64,000 bases of DNA from Candidatus Vogelbacteria bacterium (GTDB taxonomy: Bacteria > Patescibacteriota > Minisyncoccia > Phycocordibacterales > XYD1-FULL-46-19), in the NCBI GenBank assembly GCA_903864935.1, contig CAIPHT010000006.1:37129-101128 (forward strand). The letters are read 5' to 3'. The position numbers were made by a program, and so were the translations under genes. Under the pieces are notes generated by a model, which searched no databases, was not told where the DNA came from, and worked only from the letters and a program-made list of their open reading frames with translations. Below, piece after piece: positions 6,072-58,219 of this stretch. Positions within the stretch are counted from its first letter, which is position 1. Each line of letters opens with the position of its first letter.

Positions 6072-6077
6072 TTGGAA

Positions 6078-9056: not shown

Positions 9057-9148
9057 TCCACATCAAAGTGGGGCAAGAGCGACCTTTATTAGACCACAGG
9101 TTGACAACATTTGACTTATTGTGGGTTTAATGATACAACTATATCACT

Positions 9149-18857: not shown

Positions 18858-21320
18858 GTGATGTTCGCCTCTAAGAAAAAAGTGGGGAGTAATGTTATTG
18901 GTGTTATCGATATTGGTAGCGCGCGGGTTAGCGGTGCCTTAATGACTGACTGGCCCAAGATAACAGGGGAGACAAGCGAGAGTGTCAATTGGCAAGAATT
19001 GCCCGATTGGGACAGATTCCAAGCGGGAATTGAGCAATCACTCGAGCGCGTTCTTAAGAAATTAGCCAAGGGCAAACACGCTAAACCAACGGAGTTATTT
19101 GTTTTCCTCTCGGCCCCCTTTTTTATCGGTAGCACCAAGATTGTACGTACCAAAGATAAAGCCCCTTTTGAGATTACTCCACCTTATCTCGCTGGCTTGG
19201 TAAAAAAAGATATTCTAAGCTTTGATCGTGGACAGAAGGGCGATCTCGTTCGACTCGAGAACGAGATTATGCAAATTAAGCTCAACGGCTATTCAGTTAC
19301 CGAACCGCTCGGCCAGATGGCCACCGAGATAGAACTCTCTCACTGGCAAAGCGAGAGTCACATTTCCTTAATTGAGAAATTCAAAGAGATTATTAAGGGA
19401 GAATTTCCCGAAGCACGAATAACTTTCCATTCCTTCGCCTATGCCTCTTACGCCGTTTTTAGCGAATTATTGCCCGAGAAGGATCTGATTATCATCGACA
19501 CCGGCAACGAATTGACCGATGTCATCGTTATTAAAGATGGTTATCTTGCCGAACACTTATCCTTCCCTTTGGGTAAGAATTATCTTATTCGTTCTGTCAC
19601 CAAGTCTCTCCAGACTGTGCCCGTTGACACTGAGGGTATTCTTAATCGTTACGCGAGCAGTAAGACAAACAATCAACTAAAGAATCGTCTCGAACCAGCT
19701 CTCGTTAAGCCCGCCGAAGAATGGTTGGGAAATCTTGGCGAATCTCTAACCCGCGCCCTAAAGACAACAATACTGCCCGAAGATATTTATATTTTTGGTG
19801 ACGAACCAAGCGACAAAGTCTTCGCTGATTTTATAAAAAAGGCCGATTTTTCATCCATTTCTATCGGTCACAAACCTTTTAGAGTCTATTATTCAGAGAA
19901 ACCGCTCGGTCAAGCACTTGAGCACTTGTCAGGCAAAATTTCTCCACCCGTTGGCAATAATTTCCTTTTGGCAGAGGCCCTCTTTTGTGCTATGCTGAAG
20001 GGTAGCAAATTGAATCTTTGGCCATTTAATCAATTAATAACAACTATGCATGATATAACTAAAAACAAAAAAAGTTTGCGTGATATCTTCCCCGAGAACA
20101 AAGTCGGGACGGGGACTATTAATAATTCTATGAATGAAGAGCCTAATTTCAAAACTTCGAGCTACACCCCTCAGAGACCAGTACGGTCTAGCACCGGCTT
20201 GAGCCTAAAGATCAAAATCTTTGCCGGAGTTCTCGTCTTAGCCATCATTATCGCCGGCGGTTTTGCCCTCTCATCACAATTTGCCAAGATTACCGTTAAG
20301 GTTACTCCCAAACAAGGTCGCCTGATGGTCAGCAATACCTATGAGGCCAACAAGTTGGCCGGTGAAGGGCTCAAGTTTTCTCTGGCCTCCAATATTTCGG
20401 TTGAAGATAGTGCCAACGTTCCAGCCAGCGGCGTAGTTGCCGTTAAGAACAAGACTCGAGGCAAAATTGTCATCTCTAATACAAGCAACACTAGTCAGAA
20501 CCTAATCGCTACCACCCGCTTCCAAACTCAAACTGGTTTAATCTATCGGATTGAGAAAAATATCAGCGTACCAGTCGGTCAGTCAGAGGTCACCGTTGTC
20601 GCTGATCAGCCCGGCCCAGATTACAATCTAGCCAGTGCCGATTTTACTATCCCTGGCTTTAAGGGGACGCCCAAATTCACTCAATTCTCCGCCAAGACAA
20701 AGGAGGCTCTCACCGGTGGGGCAATTGGCAATCAACCAAAAGTCTCGGACGAAGATCTTGCCAAGGCAACCGCTGGCCTCAAAGCCAAACTTCTGGCTGC
20801 CGCCGTGGCCAAACTTAAGCCCCAAATTCCCGACGGTTTTATCCTTTTTGACGGAGCAGTTATTGCCAATTTCACCCCAGAGATTAGTAGCGACCCCAGC
20901 AAGCCTGGCGAAGCGATCCTTAAGCTTAAGGCGGATGCCACCGGTATCCTCTTCAACGAGAGAGAGCTGGCAGGATTTCTAGCCAAGCAACAAGTTCCCG
21001 ATTACAAGGACGAACCGGTTGATGTCACCAATTGGTCAAGTTTCAAATTTAGCTTGATAAATAACGATAATTCTGACCTAAGCAGTGTCGACAAAGTCAG
21101 TTTCAAACTTGAGGGGACCGGCCAATTAGTCTGGGCCTTCGACCCCGCAATGCTTAAACAGAAGCTCCAATCTGCCGGAGCAAACAATTATAAGACGGTC
21201 TTCACCCAAGATTTTCCTATGATCCAAGTGGCCAACATTGTCTTCACCCCACCCTGGGTGAGGAGTATCCCAAGTGACCCCAACCGGATCTCGGTCGAGA
21301 CAAGCATTAGCAAGCCTTGA
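18858..21320 (+). CDS. Large membrane-anchored protein with an N-terminal actin-like ATPase domain (FtsA/PilM-like), one TM helix and a long extracytoplasmic C-terminal region.
   Basis: Phosphate-1-like motif IGVIDIGSARVSGAL. TM helix IFAGVLVLAIIIAGGFALS near residue 450. 820 aa. TATAAT lies 4 nt before the ATG. Confidence 0.45.
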   Translation: MMFASKKKVGSNVIGVIDIGSARVSGALMTDWPKITGETSESVNWQELPDWDRFQAGIEQSLERVLKKLAKGKHAKPTELFVFLSAPFFIGSTKIVRTKDKAPFEITPPYLAGLVKKDILSFDRGQKGDLVRLENEIMQIKLNGYSVTEPLGQMATEIELSHWQSESHISLIEKFKEIIKGEFPEARITFHSFAYASYAVFSELLPEKDLIIIDTGNELTDVIVIKDGYLAEHLSFPLGKNYLIRSVTKSLQTVPVDTEGILNRYASSKTNNQLKNRLEPALVKPAEEWLGNLGESLTRALKTTILPEDIYIFGDEPSDKVFADFIKKADFSSISIGHKPFRVYYSEKPLGQALEHLSGKISPPVGNNFLLAEALFCAMLKGSKLNLWPFNQLITTMHDITKNKKSLRDIFPENKVGTGTINNSMNEEPNFKTSSYTPQRPVRSSTGLSLKIKIFAGVLVLAIIIAGGFALSSQFAKITVKVTPKQGRLMVSNTYEANKLAGEGLKFSLASNISVEDSANVPASGVVAVKNKTRGKIVISNTSNTSQNLIATTRFQTQTGLIYRIEKNISVPVGQSEVTVVADQPGPDYNLASADFTIPGFKGTPKFTQFSAKTKEALTGGAIGNQPKVSDEDLAKATAGLKAKLLAAAVAKLKPQIPDGFILFDGAVIANFTPEISSDPSKPGEAILKLKADATGILFNERELAGFLAKQQVPDYKDEPVDVTNWSSFKFSLINNDNSDLSSVDKVSFKLEGTGQLVWAFDPAMLKQKLQSAGANNYKTVFTQDFPMIQVANIVFTPPWVRSIPSDPNRISVETSISKP

Positions 21321-35747: not shown

Positions 35748-36962
35748 TTATTTAAAAATAATTTTCTTGTAGGTTTTTTTACCAGTCCGAAGAAGAACAA
35801 AATCTCGCCCATCTTTAGTTATAGAAACAAGACTATTGGAAACAGGGACATCGTCAACATAAACTCCACCACCATCCACAAGCCGACGCGCCTGCGTTTT
35901 AGACATTGCCATTTGTGCCAACATCAATAAATCCGCAATATTAATACCAACTTCATTAATTTCTACTTCCAAACTCGGTATTGCCTCCGAATCAGCTCCA
36001 GCTCCAGAGAAAAGCTCAAGCGCCGCTTGTTTGGCCTTCTCCGCCTCAGCCTCGCCATGGATAAACTTAGTCACTTCATAAGCCAAAACTTCTTTGGCCT
36101 GCTTTATCTCCGCGCCTTCTAATTTTTCTAAATTGGCGATTTCTTCGAGGGAAAGGAAGGTAAAAATCTTCAAGAATTTACCCACATCACGGTCGTCAAC
36201 ATTAATCCAGTATTGATAAAAATCGAAGGGGGAGTATTTGCTCGCCTCAAGCCAGACAGCGCCCCCCACACTCTTGCCCATCTTCTTGCCATCGCTGGTC
36301 GTGATAAGGGGAATAGTGAAAGCATAAACTTCTTGCTCACGCTTGCGACGGATCAAATCCACACCGGCCAAGATATTGCCCCACTGATCGCTCCCTCCGA
36401 TCTGCAATTTGCAAGCAAACTCATCATGAAGATGAAGATAATCGACAGCCTGTAGCAAAAGATAATTAAACTCAAAAAAAGTTAGGCCTTGTTCACTCTC
36501 TAAGCGGTCACGATAGGTCTCATTCTTAATCATCTCGTTGACCTTAAAATAGGAGCCATATTCTTGCAAGAATCCAAGATAATTAACATCACGGAACCAA
36601 TCAAGATTATTCACAAACTCCACTTCATAACCTTTTAGAAGTTTGCGCACCTGAGCCGAGAGAGAAGCGTAATTGTGGTCTAAGGTCTCAGTGCTCATCA
36701 TCTGACGCATCTCAGTGCGACCAGAGGGATCTCCCACCATACCAGTGGCACCACCGACGAGACACACGGGCTTATGGCCAGCCGCGGCCAAACGGGCCAT
36801 GGTAATGATCAAAGCCAAACTCCCTACATGCAAACTGTCGGCGGTCGGATCAAACCCAGCATAAAAGGAAATTTTCTCTTTCCCCAAGACTTCACCAAGC
36901 TTGCCCTCGTGTGACTCTTGGGCGAGTAACCCACGCGCCTTTAATTCTTCGATAATATTCAT
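35748..36962 (-). CDS. tyrS: Tyrosyl-tRNA synthetase with a C-terminal S4 domain.
   Basis: HIGH-region GFDPTADSLHVGSL, KMSKS as KMGKS, and a C-terminal S4-like RRLVDGGGVYVDD. Confidence 0.9.
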   Translation of the reverse strand: MNIIEELKARGLLAQESHEGKLGEVLGKEKISFYAGFDPTADSLHVGSLALIITMARLAAAGHKPVCLVGGATGMVGDPSGRTEMRQMMSTETLDHNYASLSAQVRKLLKGYEVEFVNNLDWFRDVNYLGFLQEYGSYFKVNEMIKNETYRDRLESEQGLTFFEFNYLLLQAVDYLHLHDEFACKLQIGGSDQWGNILAGVDLIRRKREQEVYAFTIPLITTSDGKKMGKSVGGAVWLEASKYSPFDFYQYWINVDDRDVGKFLKIFTFLSLEEIANLEKLEGAEIKQAKEVLAYEVTKFIHGEAEAEKAKQAALELFSGAGADSEAIPSLEVEINEVGINIADLLMLAQMAMSKTQARRLVDGGGVYVDDVPVSNSLVSITKDGRDFVLLRTGKKTYKKIIFK

Positions 36963-38043: not shown

Positions 38044-38529
38044 GTGGACATTCAGAAAGTTGCCGAACGTGTGGCCGGTTACTCGACCGCGACGGCCGTG
38101 TCGGTTGTCATTGACGACCTGCTGTGGCCGGTTGTGATGTTGTGGCAAGGGTCAGTATGGGGTGGGGTCATCATGTTTTTGATCGCTCTCCTGGCCAACC
38201 TCGTAATGATCTGGGCTTACGACAAGATCAAGAAGGACCTCTTCTGTTTCGAGGACCTCCGAGCCCTGGCCGAGAACGAGCAGGCCACCAGAGGGATGCG
38301 CCTCCTGGCTTGGTTTGTCCGAGCCGGCAAGGTGCCAGCCTTTCTGGCCATCTCGTTCTACGACCCCTTCATCTCCGTGCTTTACATGCGAAGGGGGGCG
38401 GGTAAGTACCAGATGGAGAATCGTGACTGGGGCTACTTCATGCTGGCGATGTTCATCGCCTGCACAGGGTGGACCGCTTGCTGGGGAGGAGCCATCCTCA
38501 CCGGCAAAACTATTTGGGGGCTGCTCTAA
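38044..38529 (+). CDS. Hypothetical membrane protein (GC-rich).
   Basis: 161 aa, four hydrophobic helices, about 58 % GC. Terminator at 38549-38582. Confidence 0.4.
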   Translation: MDIQKVAERVAGYSTATAVSVVIDDLLWPVVMLWQGSVWGGVIMFLIALLANLVMIWAYDKIKKDLFCFEDLRALAENEQATRGMRLLAWFVRAGKVPAFLAISFYDPFISVLYMRRGAGKYQMENRDWGYFMLAMFIACTGWTACWGGAILTGKTIWGLL

Positions 38530-38653: not shown

Positions 38654-39832
38654 ATGACCATTGAAGATCTATATACTCCGCTAGAGGAGGCAAAGAAAGA
38701 AATACGTAGACGTTGGGCCGACAAAGATTTAGAAAAAAAAGTGGCCAAATTTTTAAAAGGGAATATTCCCGATGTTTTTTTGCATGAACCACTCGCTATC
38801 TCCACGACTCACGTCGCCACGCCCAATTGGGCGCTCTTAGAATTCAGAAAGGAGGCGCAAGAGATTGGTCTTAAACCATTAATTTTTGAATACCTAGAAG
38901 ATGCCTTTATCACCACCAACTTCGACAAGGCCTCACTCGCGCGAATGGTCTTCTATCACGGGCGTGATGATCATGGCGATATGATGACGACCAGTCGCCA
39001 TGTTATCGACCTTACTGGCAAAGAGGAGAAGAAGAAGATCAAAGACATCGAGACACTCTGGGGAAGCAACTTAGTTGAGTTTCATCATGGCGTCTTCATG
39101 TCTTATTGCCCGGGCGTCGACGTGACCGACGGCTCCAGTTTCTACAAGGCGATGGGCAATTGCGCCAAAGAATATTATCCTTATATCCTCGCTCTCTATA
39201 TTAGAAACGGTGTTCTCTTCGAGAATTATATTGCCAACCGACACGAACAAAAATTCCTCGACGAAATTCTCTTTCCCGCTTTTGAAATCGTCCAAAAAGA
39301 ATTCGGCCTCAAACCTCTGATTGTAACCATCGCGCCCCAGAATGAAGCCGATAATAAATATTGGTGGTGTTATCCCGAATTTATTAAAACTCTAATTCCT
39401 AAGAACAAAGAGGAGGAGGAACGAGAGACTGTCCACAATGTCAACAAAGCCAGTGGCCTAAGTGTCGAGGAGCTCAAGGAATTAATGAGCAAGTGGCAAG
39501 TTAAACTCAAGATGGAGGATTGGAATCTCTCGCTCGAGATTGTGAAATTCTATCGCAAAAATGGTTACCATCAGAGCGGCGACTTTATTGCTGATCCGCT
39601 TAAAAAAGAAGCGATTATCCTCCTCACTCACAATCCTTGGCGCGGCGATGAAGAATATACCTTGGTGCATGAGATGCTCCACGTTCTTCTCTATGATTAT
39701 GATAAATATAGCGAAGATTTAATTTTGAAAAATTTCCAAAAATCCAGCCTCGAACACGACGCCTATATGGAGAAACTAGAGGAGACCACTCACAACCTCA
39801 CAAGGATAATTCTGGGGAGGAGTGATAGATAA
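38654..39832 (+). CDS. Hypothetical protein with a C-terminal HExxH motif. Putative zinc metalloprotease-like.
   Basis: 392 aa. HEMLH near the C-terminus. No other recognisable family motifs. Confidence 0.4.
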   Translation: MTIEDLYTPLEEAKKEIRRRWADKDLEKKVAKFLKGNIPDVFLHEPLAISTTHVATPNWALLEFRKEAQEIGLKPLIFEYLEDAFITTNFDKASLARMVFYHGRDDHGDMMTTSRHVIDLTGKEEKKKIKDIETLWGSNLVEFHHGVFMSYCPGVDVTDGSSFYKAMGNCAKEYYPYILALYIRNGVLFENYIANRHEQKFLDEILFPAFEIVQKEFGLKPLIVTIAPQNEADNKYWWCYPEFIKTLIPKNKEEEERETVHNVNKASGLSVEELKELMSKWQVKLKMEDWNLSLEIVKFYRKNGYHQSGDFIADPLKKEAIILLTHNPWRGDEEYTLVHEMLHVLLYDYDKYSEDLILKNFQKSSLEHDAYMEKLEETTHNLTRIILGRSDR

Positions 39833-39876: not shown

Positions 39877-40212
39877 ATGGACAAAAAGTCTAAAATTCTA
39901 CTCTTCATTGTGGGCTTGGGAATTCTCGCTTCAATTGGTGTTTCTTTTTATAAATACGTTGTCTTGCGCGATTATCAAATTTTCGCCGAGATGCCTTGCG
40001 ACCCGGCAATCGATAATTGTTTTGTTCGCACCGCCGAAGATAATTCAACCTCCACTTACAAATTACTTAGCCGTCAGGCTTCGAATATCCCGCTTTGTGA
40101 CCCAACAAATATTAATTGCCAAGCTCTCACTTGCCAGCCAAATGAGAAAAATTGCGTTATCACTACTTGCTCAGAGAAAGATCTCCCTGAGGGTGAGGCT
40201 TGTTCGAGATAG
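39877..40212 (+). CDS. Secreted or membrane-anchored Cys-rich small protein (10 Cys).
   Basis: N-terminal signal-anchor LLFIVGLGILASIGVSF and a Cys-rich C-terminal half. TATAAT lies 7 nt upstream of the ATG. Confidence 0.4.
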   Translation: MDKKSKILLFIVGLGILASIGVSFYKYVVLRDYQIFAEMPCDPAIDNCFVRTAEDNSTSTYKLLSRQASNIPLCDPTNINCQALTCQPNEKNCVITTCSEKDLPEGEACSR

Positions 40213-40330
40213 AGAAATTAAACTTTTGACTTTCTAAAAATCAAAAGGGGGTCGGACCGAAGTCCAACCCCCTTATTTGGGATAACTTTCCTGTTTGAGA
40301 GGAATCATGAGCTGTCCTCCGAGAGCGCGG

Positions 40331-41560
40331 CTAAATGCCTCGTTGGGCGCGGTAAGCCACAAAGGCCTCTTCTCCGTATGGGTCCGGTTTGGTAACATCA
40401 CCGCAAAAGATGTGTGATCGCGCCTGACAACCACGTAGGCCGTTCCGACGGAACTCGGTGAAGACCGGATGATTTCTCCATGTCTCGACAAAGTTTTCGT
40501 CGAAGAGGGGCAACTCGTCACCTTTGTAGTAACCAGAGAAAAGCAGTGACGGGCAGGGCAGCATCCGGCCGCCAGCGTCAATGACCACTCCCGACTGAGC
40601 CGCTCGGCATTCATTGCGGGGCGCTAATCCCAGAAGCTGAGAGATAATCGCCGAATTGGAGAGACCGACATCGTAGTTACCATCGACTCTCTTGTGAAAG
40701 AGGTCGACGATTGACTCGAAGAAGGCTTCCGGAGTTGGTGTCAACTCTTGATGGGCGGGTCGGAACGGCTTAAACAGGCTGAAGTTGCAAGGGATGCCGA
40801 TTCCGCGACCGTAGTCGAGGACGGCCTGATACCGGCCGATGTTAGTAGCCATCAGGGTGAAGATGAGCTCCACCCGGATTCCGGCCTCGACCATTTTCCG
40901 AATGGCCCAGTCTGCCTTGGCGAAAACTCCGGCACCGCGATTTGCGTCGTGGTCTCCGTTCAGCCCTTCCAGGCTGACAAACATCGCCAGATTTCTCATC
41001 GCTGCCAATTCCTGGATCATCTCTTCGTTCAGCAGTGTGCCGTTGGTGACAATGTTCACGGCAAACTCATGGTGAGCGCAAAGCCGGAGAATTGAACGAA
41101 TATCAGGGTGAACGAATGGCTCACCGCCGATAACGCTAACCTCGAACACTCCGGTTTTGGCCAGGATGTTGAGCGCCTTCTCGACTTCGGCGAAGGGCAT
41201 CTGATACCCGTAGCCGTCTTGCAGACAGTGTAGGCAGTGCAGATTGCACTTTCCGGTAATCCCGAGCTCCACACCCCAAGGGAAAGGAGTCTGGATCTGC
41301 GGCGTGACGTTGAAGACCTCCGGCGACAGCTCCACTTCTACGCTGAACAGGAAAGCTTTCGTGTCGGCCTTAACCTGTTCAAGTGGCAACTGATACTCCG
41401 TGGCCAATTCTTGAACAATCTGCTCAACGCCTTGTCCTTGGTTGAGCATCTTGTCCAGGATCATTCTTCCGGTTTGGTTCACTCCAATGACCCGCCGCGA
41501 ATCAATGAAGTAAGCCCAACTTTCCCCGTTCTTTCCGGGACTGAATCTTACTTTCGTCAT
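40331..41560 (-). CDS. Radical SAM / SPASM-domain peptide maturase with an N-terminal PqqD-like RRE domain. RiPP-modifying enzyme.
   Basis: CX3CX2C cluster GITGKCNLHCLHC, and Cys-rich C-terminal SPASM-like motifs (C-x17-C, GC-x7-C-G). N-terminal PqqD/RRE-like segment ...WAYFIDSRRVIGVNQTGRMILDKMLNQGQGVEQIVQELATEYQLPLEQVKADTKAFL. The start is placed at the ATG with SD aggaga 8 nt upstream; the ORF-track start is 41608. GC is about 55 %. Confidence 0.75.
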   Translation of the reverse strand: MTKVRFSPGKNGESWAYFIDSRRVIGVNQTGRMILDKMLNQGQGVEQIVQELATEYQLPLEQVKADTKAFLFSVEVELSPEVFNVTPQIQTPFPWGVELGITGKCNLHCLHCLQDGYGYQMPFAEVEKALNILAKTGVFEVSVIGGEPFVHPDIRSILRLCAHHEFAVNIVTNGTLLNEEMIQELAAMRNLAMFVSLEGLNGDHDANRGAGVFAKADWAIRKMVEAGIRVELIFTLMATNIGRYQAVLDYGRGIGIPCNFSLFKPFRPAHQELTPTPEAFFESIVDLFHKRVDGNYDVGLSNSAIISQLLGLAPRNECRAAQSGVVIDAGGRMLPCPSLLFSGYYKGDELPLFDENFVETWRNHPVFTEFRRNGLRGCQARSHIFCGDVTKPDPYGEEAFVAYRAQRGI

Positions 41561-41638
41561 GTTGGCTTCTCCTGTTGAAATGGGCGGTCCGAGAGGAGGG
41601 GATAACACGAGTTAATCCTCCTCCCGGACCACGAATCA

Positions 41639-41815
41639 TCAGAGCTGGGACGCGGCGACCGCTACCTCCTGGGCAACGGGCGTTTGGTTCCTCGGCGTGT
41701 GCGTCGGTCCGGGGGACCCACCACAGCTTTGCAGGCAACAGCCCGCTTCCACCGGCTCGGGGTTCGCCCCCTTGCAGGTGACTTCCGGCTTCTGGTACTG
41801 CTTGTGCTTGTCCAT
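41639..41815 (-). CDS. Candidate RiPP precursor peptide, 58 aa: MDKHKQYQKPEVTCKGANPEPVEAGCCLQSCGGSPGPTHTPRNQTPVAQEVAVAASQL.
   Basis: Manually translated minus-strand ORF, absent from the ORF track. SD aaaggag 10 nt upstream. It ends 78 nt before the rSAM start. It has four Cys and is Gly/Pro/Thr rich. Confidence 0.4.
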   Translation of the reverse strand: MDKHKQYQKPEVTCKGANPEPVEAGCCLQSCGGSPGPTHTPRNQTPVAQEVAVAASQL

Positions 41816-42054
41816 AGGTATCTCACTCCTTTCAAAGGACAGTTGTGACCCAAAACAATATTGGGTACATCTATTTTTACGCTACCATAATTTTTATATC
41901 TTGTAAACAGGCCCTAGACTATAATACTATTTAGTTTTATAGTATTTACATTACCATCATTTAGAGTAGAATCACTTTAGAGTGTTCTTCGTAAATGCTA
42001 TAATTCTAAGCACTTAACCCCCCATAAACCATGGGAGAAAGGAGATAGACGGCC

Positions 42055-43734
42055 ATGTTAAAAGTCAAGAACATCAGCAAAAGCTACGGTACTAAAGTCG
42101 TTTTCTCCGACGTCTCCTTTGGTTTGGAGAAGGGTCAAAGAGCGGCTTTGGTTGGTAGCAACGGAGTGGGGAAAACAACCCTACTCAAGATTGTCGCGGG
42201 GCTAGACGAAACAGAGACGGGCCAAGTAGAAATTAGCCGGGGCACCTGCCTGGGCTATATGCCTCAAGATACCAGCCTGACTGGACCTGAGACAATTTGG
42301 CAATATCTGCAACGAGTGACCGGCATCGCTTCGCTTGAAAAAGAGCTGGGCGAACTGGAAGCGGCTGACCTAAGCGACAAAACGATGAGCGATCGTTACG
42401 CCAGTGTCCGCGAGCGTTATGACCATCTTGATGGCTACACGCTCAAGCATCGAGCCGAAGTGATGATGTCTGGTTTCAGTATGGACGATGTTGGGCTGGA
42501 TCGGCCGTTATCCGATCTGTCCAGTGGCCAAAAGAGCAAAGTTGCTCTGATTGGCATCCTGCTGGCCGGTATTGATCTACTTCTGCTTGATGAGCCGACG
42601 AATAACTTGGATTTACCGGCCCTGATCTGGCTGGAAGATTACCTGTTGAAGTCTGAAGCGGCGTGCATCATTGTCTCGCACGATCGACGTTTTCTTGACA
42701 GAGTTGCCGACCGAGTCTTTGAGTTGAATCGACAGACCCACTCGCTCAATGTGAGCAACGGGTCATACAGCGAGTACCTTGCCCGTAAGCTGAAAGATCG
42801 GGTCCAGCAGAAAGAGCAGTATCGTCAACAACAGGAAGAGATCGGGCGCTTGACCGAACAGGCGAGAGAGAAGAAAGCCTCCGCCTTGCGTGGTTCGAGT
42901 TGGCAAGGAAGTGACAGTGACAAGTACCTTCGGGGATTTAAACGAGACCGAGCCTCAAAGTCAGGGAAGGTTGCCAAAGTTCTTGAGAAGAGGATTGATC
43001 AAATGGACAAGATCGATCGACCAATCGAACGTGAGCCACTCTCCATCTCACTTGAGGCTGAGAGCAATGGTCGTCCTCTGGATATCTCGCTCGACAATGT
43101 CGTCACTGGGTACCCTGGCCAATTTGAGTTAGGACCAATAAGCTTTGCTATTGGTTATGGCAATCGCATTGGGTTCCTCGGCCTTAACGGCAGTGGCAAG
43201 TCAACGCTCCTGAAAACAATCACTGGTCAACTTCCCGCCATCTCGGGCCAAGTGTCCCTTGGCTATGGTCTCAAGATTGGCAATATGATGCAGGAGCACG
43301 AGACTCTTCCTCGCGAAGAGACTCTGCTCAACTTCATCAAAGATCAAACTGGCCAACCTGACCAAGACGTCTTCTCTACCCTCGTGAAGTTTGGTTTCGG
43401 AGAGAAAGACATTCGGGGCAAGATCTCCGAGATCAGTCCCGGTGGTCGCGCTCGTCTTCTGCTGAGCTTGTTTTCCCTGCTGTCCGTTAACGCTCTGGTC
43501 CTCGATGAGCCCACCAATCATCTTGATGCCGAAGCAGTGGACGCGTTGGAAGAAGTCTTGGCCAGCTACAAGGGAACCGTGATTCTGGTCTCTCATGATC
43601 GTGATTTCCTTGAGAAAGCCAAGATCGACTCTGCCTACCTCATTACCGACGGACAATTGACCAAGGTGGACGACTTCCACGAATATGTCACCATGGCTGA
43701 ACAGAAAGCGAGAAAATTGCTTAGAACTATTTAA
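42055..43734 (+). CDS. ABC-F family ATPase: two ABC cassettes and no TM domain.
   Basis: Two Walker A motifs (GSNGVGKTT; GLNGSGKST), two signature motifs (LSSGQKSK; ISPGGRAR), and an inter-domain linker. 559 aa. Confidence 0.8.
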   Translation: MLKVKNISKSYGTKVVFSDVSFGLEKGQRAALVGSNGVGKTTLLKIVAGLDETETGQVEISRGTCLGYMPQDTSLTGPETIWQYLQRVTGIASLEKELGELEAADLSDKTMSDRYASVRERYDHLDGYTLKHRAEVMMSGFSMDDVGLDRPLSDLSSGQKSKVALIGILLAGIDLLLLDEPTNNLDLPALIWLEDYLLKSEAACIIVSHDRRFLDRVADRVFELNRQTHSLNVSNGSYSEYLARKLKDRVQQKEQYRQQQEEIGRLTEQAREKKASALRGSSWQGSDSDKYLRGFKRDRASKSGKVAKVLEKRIDQMDKIDRPIEREPLSISLEAESNGRPLDISLDNVVTGYPGQFELGPISFAIGYGNRIGFLGLNGSGKSTLLKTITGQLPAISGQVSLGYGLKIGNMMQEHETLPREETLLNFIKDQTGQPDQDVFSTLVKFGFGEKDIRGKISEISPGGRARLLLSLFSLLSVNALVLDEPTNHLDAEAVDALEEVLASYKGTVILVSHDRDFLEKAKIDSAYLITDGQLTKVDDFHEYVTMAEQKARKLLRTI

Positions 43735-43819: not shown

Positions 43820-44377
43820 ATGGGTGCAAAGTTTAAAATTCAAGACACAGGTAAGTACGGTTTAGGAGTTTTTGCTGATGAAGATATTAAAAAAGGGGAG
43901 ACGATAAAAGTTTTTGATGGTGAAGTAATTGATTTTGCCGAGACCGAGGAGAGAATAAAAGAGGGGAGCGAGAACAGAACAGATACCTTTCAGGTCGGTT
44001 TAGAATTAGATATGGACCTCGATGAAGAATCTCGATCATTCAACCATAGTTGCAACCCTAATGCCGGATTCAGAGGAATAAGCGAACTTATCGCCATTAG
44101 GGATATCAAGAAGGGCGAAGAGATGACTTATGATTACTCGGCCACAGTTGGCCCAAACGTCCCCGCTTCTCTCTGGGAGATGTCTTGTGATTGCGGAGCA
44201 ACCAATTGCCGTAAGATTATTGGCAATGTCCTCACTATCCCCAAAGAACAACTTAATAAATACCGTCAAGCCGGAGCACTCCAAGACTACATACTAAAAG
44301 AACTCGATATTATAGAAAAAAATAACGGGATTTCCCCTAAATACAAACCAATCCCAGGTCACGAAGAATTATCATAA
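43820..44377 (+). CDS. SET-domain protein (putative lysine methyltransferase).
   Basis: NHSCNPN, GEEMTYDY, and post-SET C.C....C. Confidence 0.65.
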   Translation: MGAKFKIQDTGKYGLGVFADEDIKKGETIKVFDGEVIDFAETEERIKEGSENRTDTFQVGLELDMDLDEESRSFNHSCNPNAGFRGISELIAIRDIKKGEEMTYDYSATVGPNVPASLWEMSCDCGATNCRKIIGNVLTIPKEQLNKYRQAGALQDYILKELDIIEKNNGISPKYKPIPGHEELS

Positions 44378-44392
44378 TCAACAAATATTATC

Positions 44393-46162
44393 GTGAGTGA
44401 AAATCTAGTTACAAATATTGGGCATTGTCTAACTTCAGCTTCCGAAATGGTTGGGGGCAACATGAGTCTTGTTTATTATTCTCATATCCCCACCGCTATC
44501 ATTACACTACTAATGGGCTTTTTTGTTCTCCGAGCCGGCAAAAACAGTTTGTCTTCGAAAATTTTGTTTGCTTTTTGCTTAACTTTCTCGATTTATATTT
44601 TTGCCAATCTTATGTCGTGGATTGGGACAAGTAGTGTCTGGATTACTTTCTTCTGGTCACTTCTCGGCTTAACGGATATCCTCTTTTATCTTCTTGGATT
44701 ATACTTTTTCTATGTCTTCGTTGACGGCAAAGACATCAGCTTCCGTCTCAAATTGGTCTTGGTGGCTATCTTCGTCCCATTTTTAATAATGTCCCCCACA
44801 CGCTTGAATATCCCCGGTTTTGACTATATTAATTGCACAGCCCTGGACACTAATTTCTTAAACTATTTATTTTATGCCAAGATATTCATTGCCATATGGT
44901 TGGCAATTTTAGCTATTTATAAATATTTAAAAGCCAAGAGCGAAGACCGTCAGCGCATTGTCATTCTTTCTCTCGGCCTTGGTCTCTTCTTGTTCTCTTT
45001 TTTTGCAACCAGTTATCTTTCTGATATTTATCAAAGATACGACATCGAACTCTACGGTCTCTACGCCATGACGGCCTTTATGGGTATCTTGGCTTACCTG
45101 ATTGTTAAATTTAAAGCTTTTAACATCAAGCTTATCGGCTCGCAAGCTCTCGTCTATGCCTTAATTATCCTGATTGGGTCACAATTCTTCTTTATCAAAA
45201 CAACCATCAATATGTTCCTGACCGGCATAACTTTTGTTATGGCCCTCATCTTCGGCGGACTCTTAATCCGTAGTGTGCAACGTGAAGTGACCCAGCGCGA
45301 AGAAATTGAGAAATTGGCCGAGAACTTGGCCAAATCTAACGACAGCCTCTATGTCGCTAATGAGAAATTGAAGGAACTCGATCGCCAGAAGACGGAGTTC
45401 GTCTCGATTGCTTCCCATCAACTCCGAAGCCCTCTCACCGCCATCAAGGGTTATTCGTCAATGCTCTTAGAAGGTTCTTTTGGTCCCGTTGAAGACAAGG
45501 CCAAGGGAGCGATTGATGTTATCTACCAATCTAGTCAACGTCTGATGACCGTGATCGAAGACTTCTTGAACATCACCCGTATCGAACTCGGCCGAATGAA
45601 GTATGAGTTATCCGTCTTTGACCTTGGTCAGATTGCTCAGACTGTTATTAAAAATCAGGAACCCAACGTATTAAAAAGAGGGCTTAAAATTGAATTCGTT
45701 GATGGCACTAATAATCATCAAATTTCGGCTGATAGCGGTAAAGTCACTCAGGTGGTCTCTAATATTGTTGACAATAGTATCAAATACACGCCAAGTGGCT
45801 GGATCAAGGTTAGTGTAGAAAACAGGCCGATGGGCAAAAGCAAATCTAAAGAAACAGTACGCTTAACCGTCTCAGACAGTGGGGTGGGTATCAACAAAGA
45901 AACCCTGCCCAAACTCTTCGATAAGTTTGTGCGCGCTGATGATGCGGGCAAAACAAATATCTCGGGTACAGGTCTTGGTCTCTATGTTGCCAAGCAAATT
46001 GTGGAGGGCTTAGGTGGCAAAATCTGGGCCGAATCCGAAGGCAAGGGTAAGGGTGCTCAGTTTATTGTTGAATTCCCGCGTTCGACCGGCGAAGTCACCC
46101 AATCCAAAAGCAAAATTGAGTCTTACACCAAAGCGGACCTTGATAAACTGAAGAAAAAATAG
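44393..46162 (+). CDS. Sensor histidine kinase with an N-terminal multi-TM sensor domain and no adjacent response regulator.
   Basis: At least 7 TM helices. HisKA H-box SIASHQLRSPLT. HATPase_c N, G1 and G2 boxes (NIVDNSIKYT, DSGVGI, GTGLGL). Confidence 0.8.
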   Translation: MSENLVTNIGHCLTSASEMVGGNMSLVYYSHIPTAIITLLMGFFVLRAGKNSLSSKILFAFCLTFSIYIFANLMSWIGTSSVWITFFWSLLGLTDILFYLLGLYFFYVFVDGKDISFRLKLVLVAIFVPFLIMSPTRLNIPGFDYINCTALDTNFLNYLFYAKIFIAIWLAILAIYKYLKAKSEDRQRIVILSLGLGLFLFSFFATSYLSDIYQRYDIELYGLYAMTAFMGILAYLIVKFKAFNIKLIGSQALVYALIILIGSQFFFIKTTINMFLTGITFVMALIFGGLLIRSVQREVTQREEIEKLAENLAKSNDSLYVANEKLKELDRQKTEFVSIASHQLRSPLTAIKGYSSMLLEGSFGPVEDKAKGAIDVIYQSSQRLMTVIEDFLNITRIELGRMKYELSVFDLGQIAQTVIKNQEPNVLKRGLKIEFVDGTNNHQISADSGKVTQVVSNIVDNSIKYTPSGWIKVSVENRPMGKSKSKETVRLTVSDSGVGINKETLPKLFDKFVRADDAGKTNISGTGLGLYVAKQIVEGLGGKIWAESEGKGKGAQFIVEFPRSTGEVTQSKSKIESYTKADLDKLKKK

Positions 46163-46202: not shown

Positions 46203-47207
46203 ATGACAGAAAATAACAAAAAAATCTTATTATCCGGTGTTAAGCCAACGGGCCGTCCCCATATCGGCAATTATTTTGGGGCAATGAAACAATTCGTCGA
46301 TCTCCAAGATGAGTATCAAGGCTATGTCTTTATTGCCGATCTTCACTCTCTCACTACCACTCGTGACCCCAAACAACTCAAGCAAGACACCTTAGACCTC
46401 GTCATTGATTATCTCGCGATTGGCCTCGATCCTGACAAAGTTATTTTCTATAAACAATCAGAGGTTTTAGAGCATGCCAACCTCGCTTGGATCTTCAATT
46501 GTCTAACCACTATGCCTTATCTTGCTCGCGCACATGCTTACAAGGCAGCCGAGGCCAAAAATAAGGAGGCTAACCCCGCTGACAGCGGGGTGAATGTTGG
46601 CCTCTTCGATTATCCCATCCTGATGGCGGCCGACATCCTTCTCTACGACGCCGATGTTGTACCAGTCGGGGCGGATCAGAAACAGCATGTCGAAATTGCT
46701 CGTGATACTGCCGAGAAATTTAATTATCATTATGGCGAAACTTTCAAATTGCCGGAGCCTCTTATTATGGAAGGGGTTAAGACTATTGTCGGACTCGACG
46801 GCCAAAAGATGAGTAAGAGCTACAACAATACCATCCCGCTCTTTGCCGAAGAAAAAGAATTAAAGGACTTGGTGATGAGTATTAAGACCGACTCTCTTGG
46901 GGTCGAAGATCCAAAAAATCCCGAGGAGTGCAATGTCTTTGCTTTGCACAAACTCTTCACTCCCGCCGACCAGCTCGCCGAGATTAAGAAGCGTTATGTC
47001 GAAGGGGGGATTGGGTATAAAGAATCTAAAGACTTGCTCTTCGAGAGTATTAATAATTATCTCAAACCCTTACGCGAGAAGAGAAAAGAAATTGCTAAGG
47101 ACCCCGCTCGCGTTATCGACATTCTCAAAAAAGGCGCCGAGCTCGCTCGTGGCCGTGCCCAAGCCAAAATGGCTGACGTGAATACCAAAGTGGGGATTGA
47201 TTTATAA
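46203..47207 (+). CDS. trpS: Tryptophanyl-tRNA synthetase.
   Basis: HIGH-like SGVKPTGRPHIGNYFG and KMSKS. 334 aa. Confidence 0.9.
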   Translation: MTENNKKILLSGVKPTGRPHIGNYFGAMKQFVDLQDEYQGYVFIADLHSLTTTRDPKQLKQDTLDLVIDYLAIGLDPDKVIFYKQSEVLEHANLAWIFNCLTTMPYLARAHAYKAAEAKNKEANPADSGVNVGLFDYPILMAADILLYDADVVPVGADQKQHVEIARDTAEKFNYHYGETFKLPEPLIMEGVKTIVGLDGQKMSKSYNNTIPLFAEEKELKDLVMSIKTDSLGVEDPKNPEECNVFALHKLFTPADQLAEIKKRYVEGGIGYKESKDLLFESINNYLKPLREKRKEIAKDPARVIDILKKGAELARGRAQAKMADVNTKVGIDL

Positions 47208-47877: not shown

Positions 47878-49209
47878 ATGATAAACAGAATAAAAATTAG
47901 TGAGTTAGGTCAGCATATTGGTGAGGAGGTGAGTATCGCCGGATGGGTCGACGTGCGTCGTGACCATGGCAAATTAATCTTCATTGATTTGCGCGATGCT
48001 TCAAGCAAAGTTCAAATGGTCGTTCTTCCCGCCCATGAAGGAGCCGTCGAGACCGCTCAGAAATTAAGACCAGAGTGGGTTATTCGCGTTACTGGTGCTG
48101 TAAACAAGCGCCCTGACAAAATGATTAAAGAAGGACAAGAAAATGGCGATGTGGAAATTGAAGTTAAAGAAATCGAAATCTTAGCCGAAGCTAAAGAGTT
48201 ACCATTTGATAAAGACAGCGAATTAAACTTCGACACTTATCTTGATTATCTTCCTCTTACCCTTCGTCGAGAGAAAGCTCGAGCGATCTTCCGTGTCCAA
48301 GCGCAAATTCTCAAATCCTTCCGCGAATTCTTAACCGGTGAAGGCTTCGTCGAATTCCAAGCCCCTAAACTTATCGGTGATGACGCCGAAGGGGGAGCGA
48401 ACTCCTTCGATGTGGAGTACTTCGGCCACACTGCTCACTTGGCTCAGAGTCCTCAACTCTATAAGCAAATCATGGTGGGCATCTTCGAGCGTGTCTTTGC
48501 CGCCGGCAACGTCTATCGCGCCGAGAAGCACAGCACCACCAGACACTTAAATGAATACACTAGTCTCGATATCGAGATAGGCTTCATTACTGACCACACA
48601 GACGTGGTAAAAATGGAAATGAGATTCCTCGCCAAAATTATGGAGGACCTCAAGGCTAATTGCGCCAAAGAATTTGCCCTCTTCGATGCCGATATTCCTA
48701 ATGTCCCGCTTGAAGTCCCGATGATGAAATTGCGCGCTGCCCAGCAGGTGATTAAAGAAGAATTCGGCGAAGATTGCTCGAGCGAACCAGACCTCGAACC
48801 CCAACACGAACGTTGGCTCTGTGAGTATTCGAAAAAGAAATTTGATTCAGATTTTATTTTCATCTCACACTTCCCAATCACCAAGCGTCCATTCTACACC
48901 ATGGAGGACCAGACTGACCCCGGTTATGCCATGGGCGGGGACTTACTTTTCCGCGGTGTTGAGATTACCACTCTCGCGCAACGTATTCACGATTACGATA
49001 TGCTCGTGGCCTCAATGGAGAAGAAAGGGCTTAACCCCGAGAAATTTAGTTATTATCTCCAAGCCTTCAAATACGGCATGCCTCCTCACGGCGGACTAGG
49101 CTTAGGTCTTGAGCGCCTCACCGCCAAGCTCCTTGGTATTGAGAATGTGAAAGAAGCAACCCTCTTCCCTCGTGACCTAAACCGCATCGACAATCTTCTC
49201 TCAAAATAG
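47878..49209 (+). CDS. aspS: Aspartyl-tRNA synthetase, archaeal/type-2 form of about 440 aa, possibly non-discriminating.
   Basis: Class IIb core (QSPQLYKQ, FRAE-like, GGLGLGLERL) and a C-terminal FPRD. That tail is AspRS type-2-like rather than the AsnRS ...FPRTPR. Confidence 0.75.
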   Translation: MINRIKISELGQHIGEEVSIAGWVDVRRDHGKLIFIDLRDASSKVQMVVLPAHEGAVETAQKLRPEWVIRVTGAVNKRPDKMIKEGQENGDVEIEVKEIEILAEAKELPFDKDSELNFDTYLDYLPLTLRREKARAIFRVQAQILKSFREFLTGEGFVEFQAPKLIGDDAEGGANSFDVEYFGHTAHLAQSPQLYKQIMVGIFERVFAAGNVYRAEKHSTTRHLNEYTSLDIEIGFITDHTDVVKMEMRFLAKIMEDLKANCAKEFALFDADIPNVPLEVPMMKLRAAQQVIKEEFGEDCSSEPDLEPQHERWLCEYSKKKFDSDFIFISHFPITKRPFYTMEDQTDPGYAMGGDLLFRGVEITTLAQRIHDYDMLVASMEKKGLNPEKFSYYLQAFKYGMPPHGGLGLGLERLTAKLLGIENVKEATLFPRDLNRIDNLLSK

Positions 49210-55770: not shown

Positions 55771-56910
55771 ATGAAGATATTATTCACCGGTGGGGGGAGC
55801 GGGGGACACTTTTACCCCATTATCGCTATTGCCGAAGAGATAAGAAATTATGCCACGAGAGAACATTTGGTTCAGCCAAGTCTCTCCTTTATGTCTGACG
55901 CACCCTACAACGAGCGGGTCCTCTTCGAGAATGAAATAAAATTTATTAAAGTTCGAGCCGGCAAATTACGTCGCGACATCTCACCAATAAGCGTCATTAA
56001 GAATTTCTTTGATTTGTTCAGAACCTTGTTTGGTGTGATTGAAGCCATTTTCAAAGTTTTTAGCCTCTACCCCGATGTAGTAGTGGGCAAGGGCGGTTAT
56101 GCCAGTTTCCCTGCCTTACTCGCCGCAAGGATCTTCCGCATCCCAGTCTTTATTCATGATTCTGATTCTCACCCTGGGCTCGTCAATCGTTGGGCCGGCA
56201 AATTTGCCACTAGGGTCGCCCTGTCTTACCCTGAGGCCATAAAATTCTTCCAAGCTGATAAGGTCGCCGTGACCGGCAATCCTCTACGCCAAGAAATTAT
56301 CACACCGACTCAGAGTGGTGCTTATGAGTATCTGCGTTTAGACAAGAATCTGCCGGTCATCTTTGTCACCGGGGGATCACAAGGAGCCAGTAAAATTAAC
56401 GAGATTATTGTCGATGTTTTACCTCAATTAATTGAAAAGTATCAAATCATTCACCAAGTGGGGAAGTTGAAGTATGCCGATCTTGCCGGCCGCGCCAAGT
56501 TTGTTCTCAAGGGGAACCCCTTTGCCGATCATTACAAAATTTTTGATTATCTTGATGTCGCCGCTCTTCGCATGACCGCCGGTGTCGCCTCGCTGGTTAT
56601 CACTCGCGCTGGCTCCTCCTTATTCGAGATTGCCAATTGGGGTCTACCCTCAATCGTGATCCCTATTCCCGAAGAGATAAGTCACGACCAACGCACCAAC
56701 GCCTTCACCTATGCTCGAAGTGGGGGGGCGGTCGTCATCGAAGAAAAAAATCTCACCCCATCAATTCTCCTCTTTGAAATTGATAAAATAATGACGGACG
56801 AGAAAATGCGCGAAGACATGATTAAGGGAGCCAAGTCATTTGCCCGTCCAGATGCCGCCTTTGTTATTGCCGGCGAAATTTTAAAAATCGCTTTAAGTCA
56901 TGAAGAATAA
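55771..56910 (+). CDS. murG: Undecaprenyl-PP-MurNAc-pentapeptide UDP-GlcNAc transferase MurG.
   Basis: FTGGGSGGHFYPIIAIAEE N-terminal motif and a GT-B C-terminal domain (GGSQGA). Confidence 0.85.
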   Translation: MKILFTGGGSGGHFYPIIAIAEEIRNYATREHLVQPSLSFMSDAPYNERVLFENEIKFIKVRAGKLRRDISPISVIKNFFDLFRTLFGVIEAIFKVFSLYPDVVVGKGGYASFPALLAARIFRIPVFIHDSDSHPGLVNRWAGKFATRVALSYPEAIKFFQADKVAVTGNPLRQEIITPTQSGAYEYLRLDKNLPVIFVTGGSQGASKINEIIVDVLPQLIEKYQIIHQVGKLKYADLAGRAKFVLKGNPFADHYKIFDYLDVAALRMTAGVASLVITRAGSSLFEIANWGLPSIVIPIPEEISHDQRTNAFTYARSGGAVVIEEKNLTPSILLFEIDKIMTDEKMREDMIKGAKSFARPDAAFVIAGEILKIALSHEE

Positions 56911-58219
56911 TATCATCACCAGATTTGCTCCCAGCCCGACCGGCTTATTGCACGCGGGTAATTACCGCACAGCGGTTTTTAGCTATCTTCAAGCAAGACA
57001 AAATGGTGGCAAATTTATTTTGCGTATCGAAGATACCGACCGCGAACGCTCAAAAAAAGAATACGCCGACAATATTATTGAGAGCTTGGCTTGGCTTAAC
57101 TTAGACTATGACGAAACCTTCTATCAATCAGAACAGGCGTCTAAACATCGAGAATATTTAGAAAAACTGATTGCTGAAGGCAAGGCTTATGTTTCTCAAG
57201 AAGAGATAAAGAAAGAAGGTGATCGAGCTGAGGTCATTCGCTTCAAGAACCCCGGCAAAAAAGTTAGCTTCCGTGACTTAATCCGTGGCGAAGTGGTCAT
57301 GGATACTAGCGACTTGGGTGACTTCGTTATTGCTAAGAGTCTCGACGAGCCCGTCTTCCACCTAGCTGTCGTTGTTGATGATTATGAGATGGGTATCACT
57401 CAAGTTATTCGCGGTGAGGACCACATCTCTAATACCCCCAGACAAATTCTAATTCAAGAAGCAATTGGTGCGCCAACACCCGAGTATGCTCATTTGCCAT
57501 TAGTCCTTTCGGCTGATCGCTCTAAACTGTCAAAACGTCGTGGCGCTTTAGCAATTACAGAGTATCGCGATCGAGGCTATTTGCCTGAAGCTGTTCTCAA
57601 CTATATGGCCATGCTTGGCTGGAATCCCGGCACAGAACAAGAAATTTTTTCTAAAGAAGAACTAGTAAAAGTTTTTGATTTATCTAAAGTTCAAAAAGGG
57701 GGAGCCTTCTTTGACCAAACCAAACTTGATTGGTTCAATCGTGAATTTATAAAAAGACAAACCCAAGACAAAAAAGTAAAAGAGGTTCTTGGACGATGCC
57801 CAACCAGAGTAAAAGAATTACCTCTTTATTCTGACGACAAACTCGCTTCTATCTCCCATCTCCTAACCGAGAGGATCAATAATTATAGCGAAGTGGCCGA
57901 CATGCTTGGTCGAGGCGATTTCGATTTCTTCTTCACCACACCTCATCCTAGCCAAGAGCTCCTACGTGGCGGAACTTACTTAAGCCAAACCCTAGATATT
58001 GTTAAAAATCTTCCCGCGGATAATTTTTCTAATTCAGAGGATATTAAGAAGGCTCTCTGGGATTTTGCCACCGAGAAGGGCCGGACCGAGGTCCTCTGGC
58101 CCATGCGCGTTGCCTTAACCGGGCAAGAGAAATCTTCCGACCCCTTCACGGTGGCCGCGATTCTCGGCAAAGAAGAGACAATAAAAAGACTCACTCATGC
58201 TGAGCAAATTTTACGTTAA
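56900..58219 (+). CDS. gltX: Glutamyl-tRNA synthetase.
   Basis: RFAPSPTGLLHAGNYRTAVFSYL (HIGH region) and KLSKR (KMSKS). 439 aa. Confidence 0.9.
   Translation: MKNNIITRFAPSPTGLLHAGNYRTAVFSYLQARQNGGKFILRIEDTDRERSKKEYADNIIESLAWLNLDYDETFYQSEQASKHREYLEKLIAEGKAYVSQEEIKKEGDRAEVIRFKNPGKKVSFRDLIRGEVVMDTSDLGDFVIAKSLDEPVFHLAVVVDDYEMGITQVIRGEDHISNTPRQILIQEAIGAPTPEYAHLPLVLSADRSKLSKRRGALAITEYRDRGYLPEAVLNYMAMLGWNPGTEQEIFSKEELVKVFDLSKVQKGGAFFDQTKLDWFNREFIKRQTQDKKVKEVLGRCPTRVKELPLYSDDKLASISHLLTERINNYSEVADMLGRGDFDFFFTTPHPSQELLRGGTYLSQTLDIVKNLPADNFSNSEDIKKALWDFATEKGRTEVLWPMRVALTGQEKSSDPFTVAAILGKEETIKRLTHAEQILR

Follow-up and report, generated by a model that had tools for sequence, protein, structure and literature searches.

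What does a radical S-adenosylmethionine (SAM) enzyme make from a small cysteine-containing peptide in an uncultured member of the Patescibacteria, and at what is the product aimed? The question is raised by a pair of minus-strand genes in a stretch of 64,000 nucleotides (nt) from Candidatus Vogelbacteria (contig CAIPHT010000006.1, positions 37,129 to 101,128), hereafter the window. An earlier note on this DNA had proposed that the pair encodes a peptide made on the ribosome and modified after translation (RiPP) of the sactipeptide or ranthipeptide kind, namely a 58-amino-acid (aa) precursor and its maturase. We find that the gene pair and its domains are real, that the pair is conserved over related loci, and that it is linked to genes for an ABC-F ATPase, an Erm-type 23S rRNA methyltransferase or both. 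On balance we lean towards reading these genes as a three-gene mobile module that would make a radical-SAM-modified peptide acting on the 50S ribosomal subunit, with the ABC-F or Erm protein providing self-immunity.

Scans of genome and metagenome collections returned 161 loci, 87 of them with a maturase of this family, and clustering of the maturases at 90% identity left 52 non-redundant loci. The maturase search itself gave ~40 close homologs with 39-69% identity, mostly labelled as Patescibacteria or Parcubacteria-group metagenome-assembled genomes (MAGs), and 38 maturase homologs were used to define invariant residues and to compare the enzyme with curated families.

The small peptide, MDKHKQYQKPEVTCKGANPEPVEAGCCLQSCGGSPGPTHTPRNQTPVAQEVAVAASQL, was translated exactly as the earlier note had given it, and the good Shine-Dalgarno site claimed for its open reading frame (ORF) was confirmed (Table 1), as was the gap of 78 nt between the end of this ORF and the ATG of the maturase gene. 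With the 58-aa peptide as query, tblastn matched 59 loci, nearly all of them on the same strand as the maturase gene and 50-210 nt upstream of it, and a motif search added more divergent copies. A precursor homolog is present in 44 of the 52 non-redundant loci, beside maturase homologs of 35-85% identity, and seven of the eight loci that have none are contig ends with at most 206 nt of upstream sequence. Conservation next to homologous maturases, on which the earlier note had staked the precursor reading, was thus borne out. The aligned peptides consist of a short leader that carries Y-x-K-P-x-[VIL] in most members at a fixed distance from the core (in the window Y7-Q-K-P10-E-V12, a YxxPx[VIL] motif), an invariant core, E-x-G-C-C-[LFIV]-x-S-C-G-G-x-P (in the window E23-A-G-C26-C27-L-Q-S30-C31-G-G-S-P35), and a variable C-terminal tail of 20-28 residues. 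The leader also fits the motif [Y/W]xxPx[L/V/I/F/A], which is bound by PqqD-like RiPP recognition elements (RREs) (PMC13381572).

In 15 comparisons of the 18-codon core, we counted 159 synonymous codon differences and 45 that replace the residue, and the invariant core serine is written with both AGY and TCN codons among relatives. The synonymous excess and the switching between serine codons indicate that selection acts on the protein sequence, and we conclude that the precursor core is under purifying selection. GGAGG-type sites lie upstream of most homologous precursors, and the 58-aa ORF has been called as a gene on nine public contigs. When 1.84 billion representative proteins were searched with a profile of the peptide, 31 matched, of which ~25 are small peptides of 51-87 aa; the precursor family is real but rare. 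A word-indexed search with the precursor recovered seven close relatives only, and comparison of the precursor with Pfam and NCBIfam gave no family match.

The listed ORF of the maturase (40331-41608, minus strand) begins at a GTG at 41608. The ATG at 41560 is the likely start, as it has AGGAG 8 nt upstream, yields a protein of 409 aa and is the start used in public gene calls on the nine contigs. Pfam detects Radical_SAM (E = 1.1e-19) and, at the N-terminus, PqqD (PF05402; E = 3.2e-8, 34.2 bits versus a cut-off of 23.4), in agreement with the N-terminal PqqD-like RRE that had been proposed. In the AlphaFold (AF2) model of the enzyme (pLDDT 92.3, pTM 0.90), residues 4-78 form beta1-3/alpha1-3 at pLDDT 83-97, which is the topology of a PqqD-type RRE. 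The CX3CX2C radical-SAM cluster of the earlier note was likewise upheld, with C105, C109 and C112 invariant in all 38 homologs. C258, C318 and C336 are also invariant, C378 is absent solely from a truncated sequence, and further signatures of the family are CNFNLFKPF, NECRA, CPSL, CQAR and DPY.

The C-terminal auxiliary-cluster cysteines that the earlier note had assigned to a SPASM domain stood in part. CX12GX4C and C378 are present, possibly together with C258, and the SPASM assignment itself failed. The domain (PF13186 / TIGR04085), which has seven cysteines (CX9-15GX4C ... CX2CX5CX3C ... C) and two auxiliary clusters, was rejected at E = 0.092 and 13.5 bits versus a cut-off of 21.5, and the motif CX2CX5CX3C was not found among the conserved residues of the 38 homologs. 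Since the CX12GX4C half-signature is present and CX2CX5CX3C is absent, the C-terminal domain is Twitch-like, that is a truncated SPASM domain of the kind seen in SkfB, BtrN and MoaA, with room for a single auxiliary cluster that it is predicted to bind. In the model, a beta-hairpin (E324-327 / E332-334) lies between C318 and C336 and is followed by a helix. The family model NF033640, 'twitch domain-containing radical SAM protein', matches 35 of the 38 members below its cut-off (50.8 bits for the window enzyme versus 170). We consider it very probable that the 58-aa ORF and the 409-aa enzyme are a functional precursor/maturase pair. The locus is an RRE-dependent, radical-SAM RiPP-type locus that combines the CX3CX2C motif, an RRE and a conserved precursor, and its enzyme is predicted to modify the peptide.

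Does the enzyme belong to a known kind of maturase? Among solved structures, a profile search placed SkfB first (E = 7.6e-29), followed by SuiB, anSME and CteB, and the top Foldseek matches were SuiB, CteB, anSME and SkfB. None of the curated NCBIfam families of radical-SAM maturases was reached at its cut-off by any of the 38 members, for which the best E-value was 6e-30 (WgkB, MftC); the best values for SkfB, StsB and PapB were 1.6e-21, 1.8e-23 and 2.2e-20. We therefore rejected the curated sactipeptide and ranthipeptide families, with AlbA at 57 bits versus a cut-off of 850 and SkfB, StsB and PapB not near theirs. The sactipeptide/ranthipeptide-type architecture of the earlier note holds for the RRE and the radical-SAM core and fails for SPASM and for every curated cut-off. 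In its full form, that proposal was of a sactipeptide or ranthipeptide locus with a SPASM maturase in which a neighbouring cysteine-rich secreted protein might be involved. The confirmed RRE, radical-SAM core and cysteine-containing precursor agree with it, as does the presence of SkfB and CteB among the closest structures; with the SPASM motif absent, no family cut-off reached, a cysteine-rich neighbour that does not recur with the module, and no account taken of the linkage to ABC-F and Erm, we regard it as quite improbable. A mycofactocin system was rejected as well, because MftC scored below its cut-off, the precursors have no C-terminal Gly-Val-Tyr, and the RRE is part of the enzyme itself rather than encoded as a separate MftB. 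A part in anti-phage defence was also discarded, as PADLOC gave only generic viperin-core and ABC-ATPase matches.

What the product might be aimed at is suggested by a gene that the earlier note had overlooked. Divergent from the pair, 239 bp upstream, lies a gene for an ABC-F ATPase. It completes the conserved module as the third gene, and Erm stands in for it in some loci. This linkage is the only clue to the target of the product. When all ORFs of the 52 loci were clustered, ABC-F was the sole family widely shared besides the maturase. An ABC-F gene lies at most ~0.7 kb from the maturase or the precursor gene in 38 of the 52 loci, with its side (upstream or downstream) and its strand varying from locus to locus. 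The next recurrent family, an Erm-type 23S rRNA methyltransferase, was found in six non-redundant loci, the window not among them. In three of these (L012, L115 and L139) the Erm gene lies directly downstream of the maturase, in the position of ABC-F and with no ABC-F present, and three others (L091, L096 and L113) have both. The three Erm copies that were scored exceed the NF000499 cut-off of 212 bits (L096, gene at 8981-9880, 232.9; L012, 229.1; L139, 240.4), and their KsgA scores of 147-175 are below their Erm scores; a candidate Erm neighbour in L020 is KsgA and was excluded. Overall, an ABC-F and/or Erm gene lies at most ~0.7 kb from the pair, or adjoins that ABC-F gene, in 41 of the 52 loci, and most of the loci with neither are short contigs.

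The ABC-F protein of the window contains two ABC_tran domains (Pfam) joined by the ABC_tran_Xtn linker and has no membrane domain. Its Walker B DEPTN motifs are intact, with E180 and E485 invariant among homologs. It matches NF000355, 'ribosomal protection-like ABC-F family protein', at 398.9 bits versus a cut-off of 380, and its second NCBIfam match is the producer family TlrC/CarA/OleB/SrmB (289 bits), whose cut-off of 800 is not reached. NF000355 matches all 35 full-length linked ABC-F proteins, and no other family reaches so low a best E-value. The pairwise identities of maturases and ABC-F proteins are correlated (Mantel r = 0.76, a value that none of 2000 permutations reached). In producers of macrolides, lincosamides and streptogramins, ABC-F and Erm proteins confer self-resistance to a compound that binds the 50S subunit. 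Here, two unrelated mechanisms that shield the 50S subunit around A2058 and the peptidyl-transferase centre are repeatedly linked to one precursor/maturase pair, suggesting that the peptide binds the large subunit. We consider it somewhat more probable than the contrary that the ABC-F or Erm protein serves as immunity against a ribosome-directed product.

Based on these findings, we propose the following course of events. The precursor would be transcribed in excess, with a hairpin between the two genes attenuating read-through into the maturase gene. The leader motif Y-x-K-P-x-V would dock on the N-terminal RRE of the maturase, a contact predicted from the sequences of both partners. The cluster held by C105, C109 and C112 would cleave SAM, and the resulting 5'-deoxyadenosyl radical would take a hydrogen from the core E-x-G-C-C-L-x-S-C-G-G-x-P, assisted by a single Twitch-type auxiliary cluster (C318, C336, C378 and perhaps C258). 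The most probable product would carry at least one intramolecular cysteine thioether cross-link of the sactionine or ranthionine type. That the modification is a cysteine thioether is our tentative and rather doubtful suggestion, drawn from the closest homolog, SkfB, and from the three invariant cysteines; a different radical reaction directed at cysteine may occur instead. Leader removal and release would fall to non-dedicated or variable functions, such as the M16 or DUF2268 peptidases found in some loci only. The product would then bind the 50S subunit near the peptidyl-transferase centre (PTC) or the entrance of the exit tunnel, and the producer would be protected by the linked ABC-F protein through drug displacement or, in other members of the family, by Erm methylation at A2058.

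It should be noted that several observations weigh against this proposal. Among solved structures, the window ABC-F protein is most similar, by pairwise comparison, to YheS and EttA of E. coli, with PoxtA next; YheS and EttA are housekeeping translation factors, and PoxtA is a resistance factor. The ABC-F subfamily is not settled by sequence alone, and its part in resistance is a predicted one. Four loci (L010, L102, L112 and L138) have full flanks yet carry neither ABC-F nor Erm. Shared organismal phylogeny could account for the correlated divergence of maturases and ABC-F proteins. Neither an exporter nor a leader peptidase accompanies the module consistently across the 52 loci, as the earlier note had seen for a protease/exporter pair in the window; M16 peptidases occur in four loci and DUF2268 zinc proteases in four. 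Such an absence is unusual for a secreted antibiotic. Finally, the grounds for a thioether are just the closest homolog and the cysteine motif, and relatives of the enzyme catalyse many other reactions.

Some of these points bear on the main rival, in which a real RiPP acts inside its producer, either as a ribosome-modulating or dormancy factor or as the toxin-like part of an addiction module with ABC-F or Erm as the antidote, or in which the ABC-F protein helps to translate the precursor with its PEPVE and GGSPGP stretches. The minimal module of three genes with no conserved exporter or protease, its location on mobile DNA and the likeness of the ABC-F protein to YheS and EttA are all in keeping with such a role. 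However, Erm takes the place of ABC-F in three loci, and methylation of 23S rRNA is unfit for helping the translation of a single peptide. Moreover, every linked ABC-F protein falls under the ribosomal-protection model. We consider an intracellular role unlikely.

The regularity of the linkage also bears on whether the ABC-F and Erm genes are merely resistance genes that travel together with a RiPP of non-ribosomal function, for example a redox cofactor of the mycofactocin or PQQ kind, a metal-binding or a signalling peptide. The maturase has MftC (TIGR03962) as its top NCBIfam match, at 84 bits, the three-cysteine motif could bind metal, and erm and antibiotic-resistance (ARE)-type ABC-F genes are commonly carried on mobile DNA. 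On the other hand, the MftC score is far below the cut-off of 265, and the precursor has no Gly-Val-Tyr terminus as in MftA. The linkage is seen in 41 of 52 distinct loci, in many gene orders and mostly in Patescibacteria, and two unrelated protection mechanisms have been recruited, both of which are missing where the cysteine motif is lost. We therefore regard co-travelling as improbable.

This last case is a Portnoybacteria-type locus (L138), in which the maturase is kept and the upstream peptide (5779-5931, plus strand) lies between pheS and pheT. The peptide is degenerate, reading GFCFRGHGG with one cysteine left, and the locus is the only full-length one without the cysteine motif; it has neither ABC-F nor Erm nearby. 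It appears that the loss of the cysteine motif and that of the immunity gene went together.

If our preferred reading of a ribosome-directed peptide with linked immunity is right, then the module would represent an undescribed RiPP class, a radical-SAM/Twitch-modified GCCxxSCGG peptide that inhibits the 50S subunit near the macrolide/PTC site and occurs mainly in Patescibacteria (the candidate phyla radiation, CPR); to this complete description we give slightly less than even weight. In the literature we found no description of the core motif, or of ABC-F or Erm together with RiPPs, radical SAM enzymes or CPR bacteria. What sets the locus apart is that it represents a new RiPP family, found mainly in Patescibacteria, with the ribosome as its predicted target and an immunity partner for which there is no precedent.

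Ribosome-targeting peptides are sought-after antibiotic scaffolds, and the known RiPP examples use other chemistries. The resistance genes would here predict the target ahead of any knowledge of the compound. If true, no RiPP of the radical-SAM kind would before have been known to have the ribosome as its target. The peptide would also be the first antibiotic of ultra-small episymbiotic bacteria whose target could be predicted, and these bacteria might use it against hosts or competitors. ARE-type ABC-F and Erm proteins, best known as clinical resistance determinants, would serve as self-immunity towards a peptide of uncultured Patescibacteria, and such self-immunity would indicate that these resistance families are selected for in the environment. 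The module would also give a clue to how an episymbiont with a reduced genome interacts with neighbouring cells.

The arrangement of the genes is given in Table 1.

Table 1. Features of the module and of the surrounding window (positions are those of the window; residues are those of the maturase).
Feature	Position	Strand	Size or content	Basis
Precursor peptide gene	41639..41815	(-)	58 aa	ORF list, Shine-Dalgarno site and homologs
Shine-Dalgarno site AAGGAG of the precursor gene	41826..41831	(-)	10 nt before the ATG	read off the sequence
Intercistronic stem-loop between precursor and maturase genes	41584..41632	(-)	16-bp G+C-rich stem with a small inner hairpin	folding
Radical-SAM maturase gene	40331..41560	(-)	409 aa	domain hits, invariant residues and model
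RRE (PqqD-like, beta3-alpha3)	41321-41560		residues 1-80	
Radical-SAM core	C105-X3-C109-X2-C112 at 41225-41248		~residues 96-300	
Twitch-like C-terminal domain			~residues 301-409; C318-X12-G331-X4-C336 and C378	
Intrinsic terminator closing the precursor-maturase operon	40245..40274	(-)	13-bp GC-rich stem, TTCG loop, T-rich tail	
Divergent intergenic region	41816..42054		AT-rich, 34.7% GC	
ABC-F ATPase gene	42055..43734	(+)	559 aa	NF000355 and conserved adjacency
Aminoacyl-tRNA synthetase and DnaK genes	6072-9056, 14651-16480, 35748-36962, 46203-47207, 47878-49209, 56900-58219			

The precursor and maturase genes are rich in guanine plus cytosine (GC), as the earlier note had remarked, with 55.9% versus 45.3% in the whole window. 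The ABC-F gene (42055-43734) has 51%, and the flanking genes on either side have 40-44%; since both the pair and its divergent neighbour exceed these flanks, the GC-rich block spans the ABC-F gene, and the three genes form a single island of 52% versus 45%. We also considered whether the module is what remains of a horizontally acquired island, decaying and not expressed, as the foreign GC content and the decayed relative in L138 might suggest. Its three ORFs, however, are intact, with Shine-Dalgarno sites, a terminator and conserved catalytic residues, and the identical pair is found on nine contigs from several samples, so that we find this possibility barely credible.

The intercistronic hairpin has a folding energy of -40.7 kcal/mol (z = -5.4), and none of 200 shuffled sequences was as stable. 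In 21 of 32 related loci a stable hairpin (z < -2) stands after the stop codon of the precursor gene, and in many of them a U-run follows it. The stem-loop of the window is likely a partial terminator or an mRNA-stabilising element that would raise the precursor-to-enzyme ratio, an arrangement between precursor and maturase genes that is common in RiPP operons and has this effect. In the divergent intergenic region, two sigma-70-like sites (41945-41972 and 41976-42004, consensus matches only) lie on the plus strand and face the ABC-F gene, the second with an extended -10 element. The ABC-F gene has a Shine-Dalgarno site that coincides in part with a mini-ORF of five codons (ATG GGA GAA AGG AGA TAG, MGERR*; 42031-42048, plus strand). 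This mini-ORF may be due to chance, or it may act as a leader-peptide attenuator such as is found with ABC-F and erm genes that confer resistance. A search for structured RNAs gave no Rfam match in the window at gathering thresholds.

Several observations concern the mobility of the module. In the window it is flanked by genes for a 392-aa protein with an HEMLH (HExxH) motif (38654-39832, plus strand) and for a SET-domain protein (43820-44377, plus strand). Homologs of both surround a differently arranged module in L096 (4685-5419 and 10303-10806) and L097, and a homolog of the 392-aa protein also flanks the module in L103. That these host genes recur in the window and in L096 around modules of different arrangement points to a mobile cassette and to a possible common site of insertion. 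The module again consists of three genes in Firmicutes- or Actinobacteria-type loci, with recombinase or relaxase genes nearby. We also noted integrase-, relaxase- and serine-recombinase-like ORFs adjoining the module in gut- or rumen-type loci (L127, 953-2176 and 8644-9900; L021, 5166-5777), which we recognised on visual inspection of their N-terminal sequences. Searches of the PLSDB plasmids and of the INPHARED phage collection gave no relative of the maturase. The module is also present in MAGs labelled as archaea or Gammaproteobacteria (L019, labelled Candidatus Woesearchaeota archaeon, L010, L013 and L016), which may stem from faulty binning or labelling or from genuine transfer across domains.

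Other neighbours were weighed as members of the module and set aside. The HEMLH and SET-domain proteins recur merely as flanks in two or three related genomes, and nothing corresponding to the cysteine-rich protein, a GC-rich ORF of 161 aa or an M28 peptidase was found in related loci. The cysteine-rich protein of the earlier note does exist (39877-40212, plus strand; 111 aa with an N-terminal hydrophobic segment and eight cysteines), and it is unrelated to the conserved module, being found solely on contigs identical to the window and having no family match. The 161-aa ORF (38044-38529, plus strand) is a second small GC-rich islet (57.8% GC) and encodes a hydrophobic, membrane-protein-like product, with no match in Pfam, NCBIfam or PADLOC and no counterpart in related loci. 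Membrane histidine kinases are encoded 2-5 kb from the module in four loci (the window, 44393-46162, plus strand; L009; L021; L096), which probably reflects generic kinase similarity and not a linked regulator.

The window as a whole is unusually rich in aminoacyl-tRNA synthetase genes (LeuRS, AlaRS, TyrRS, TrpRS, a non-discriminating AspRS and GluRS) and also encodes DnaK. Two separated stretches of the 994-aa LeuRS match its model, which suggests a large insertion. The only tRNA found in the window is tRNA-Gln (anticodon TTG; 19186-19268, plus strand), which lies inside an ORF (18858-21320) of 820 aa with no NCBIfam match; the listed start of this ORF is probably over-extended.

How does the module compare with known systems? 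SkfB, the maturase of the Bacillus subtilis sporulation killing factor (PDB 6efn), has the same layout of RRE, radical-SAM core and Twitch domain with a single auxiliary cluster, and a small cysteine-containing precursor is likewise encoded alongside it. The match, however, covers the RRE and core only (residues 33-254), and the precursors are unrelated. Unlike the window module, the skf operon encodes an ABC transporter of its own for export and immunity together with a protease-like cyclase, and it lacks a ribosome-protection gene. SuiB (5v1q), CteB (5wgg) and PqqE share the overall fold of RRE, radical-SAM core and C-terminal Fe-S domain, and maturases of the SuiB/CteB type match the window enzyme with Foldseek E-values of 3e-19 to 1e-11 and TM scores of 0.55-0.71 at a sequence identity of 15-18%. 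These three enzymes have a full seven-cysteine SPASM domain with two auxiliary clusters, whereas the window family is without CX2CX5CX3C. In lasso-peptide/LPP systems, a YxxPx[L/V/I] leader is bound by a PqqD-like RRE (PMC13381572), and the precursors described here carry the comparable Y-x-K-P-x-[VIL]; in contrast to those systems, the window module has no lasso cyclase or B2 protease, and its RRE is fused to the radical-SAM enzyme.

With respect to the predicted target, the nearest known products are klebsazolicin and phazolicin, modified ribosomal peptides that plug the upper exit tunnel beside the PTC (PMC7136475), and a 2020 review of translation-targeting RiPPs mentions neither ABC-F and Erm proteins nor radical-SAM enzymes (PMC7136475). 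The site of these two peptides is the one guarded by Erm and ARE-type ABC-F proteins. They differ from the product proposed here in that they are made by YcaO/dehydrogenase azole chemistry and not by radical SAM chemistry, and their producers use an exporter for self-protection. In its logic the genetic arrangement resembles that of OleB, CarA, TlrC, SrmB and ErmE, for which, as in the window module, the producer cluster carries an ABC-F protein and/or an A2058 methyltransferase. Those clusters make polyketide or non-ribosomal products in actinomycetes, whereas here the product would be a ribosomal peptide, and the producers are mainly Patescibacteria.

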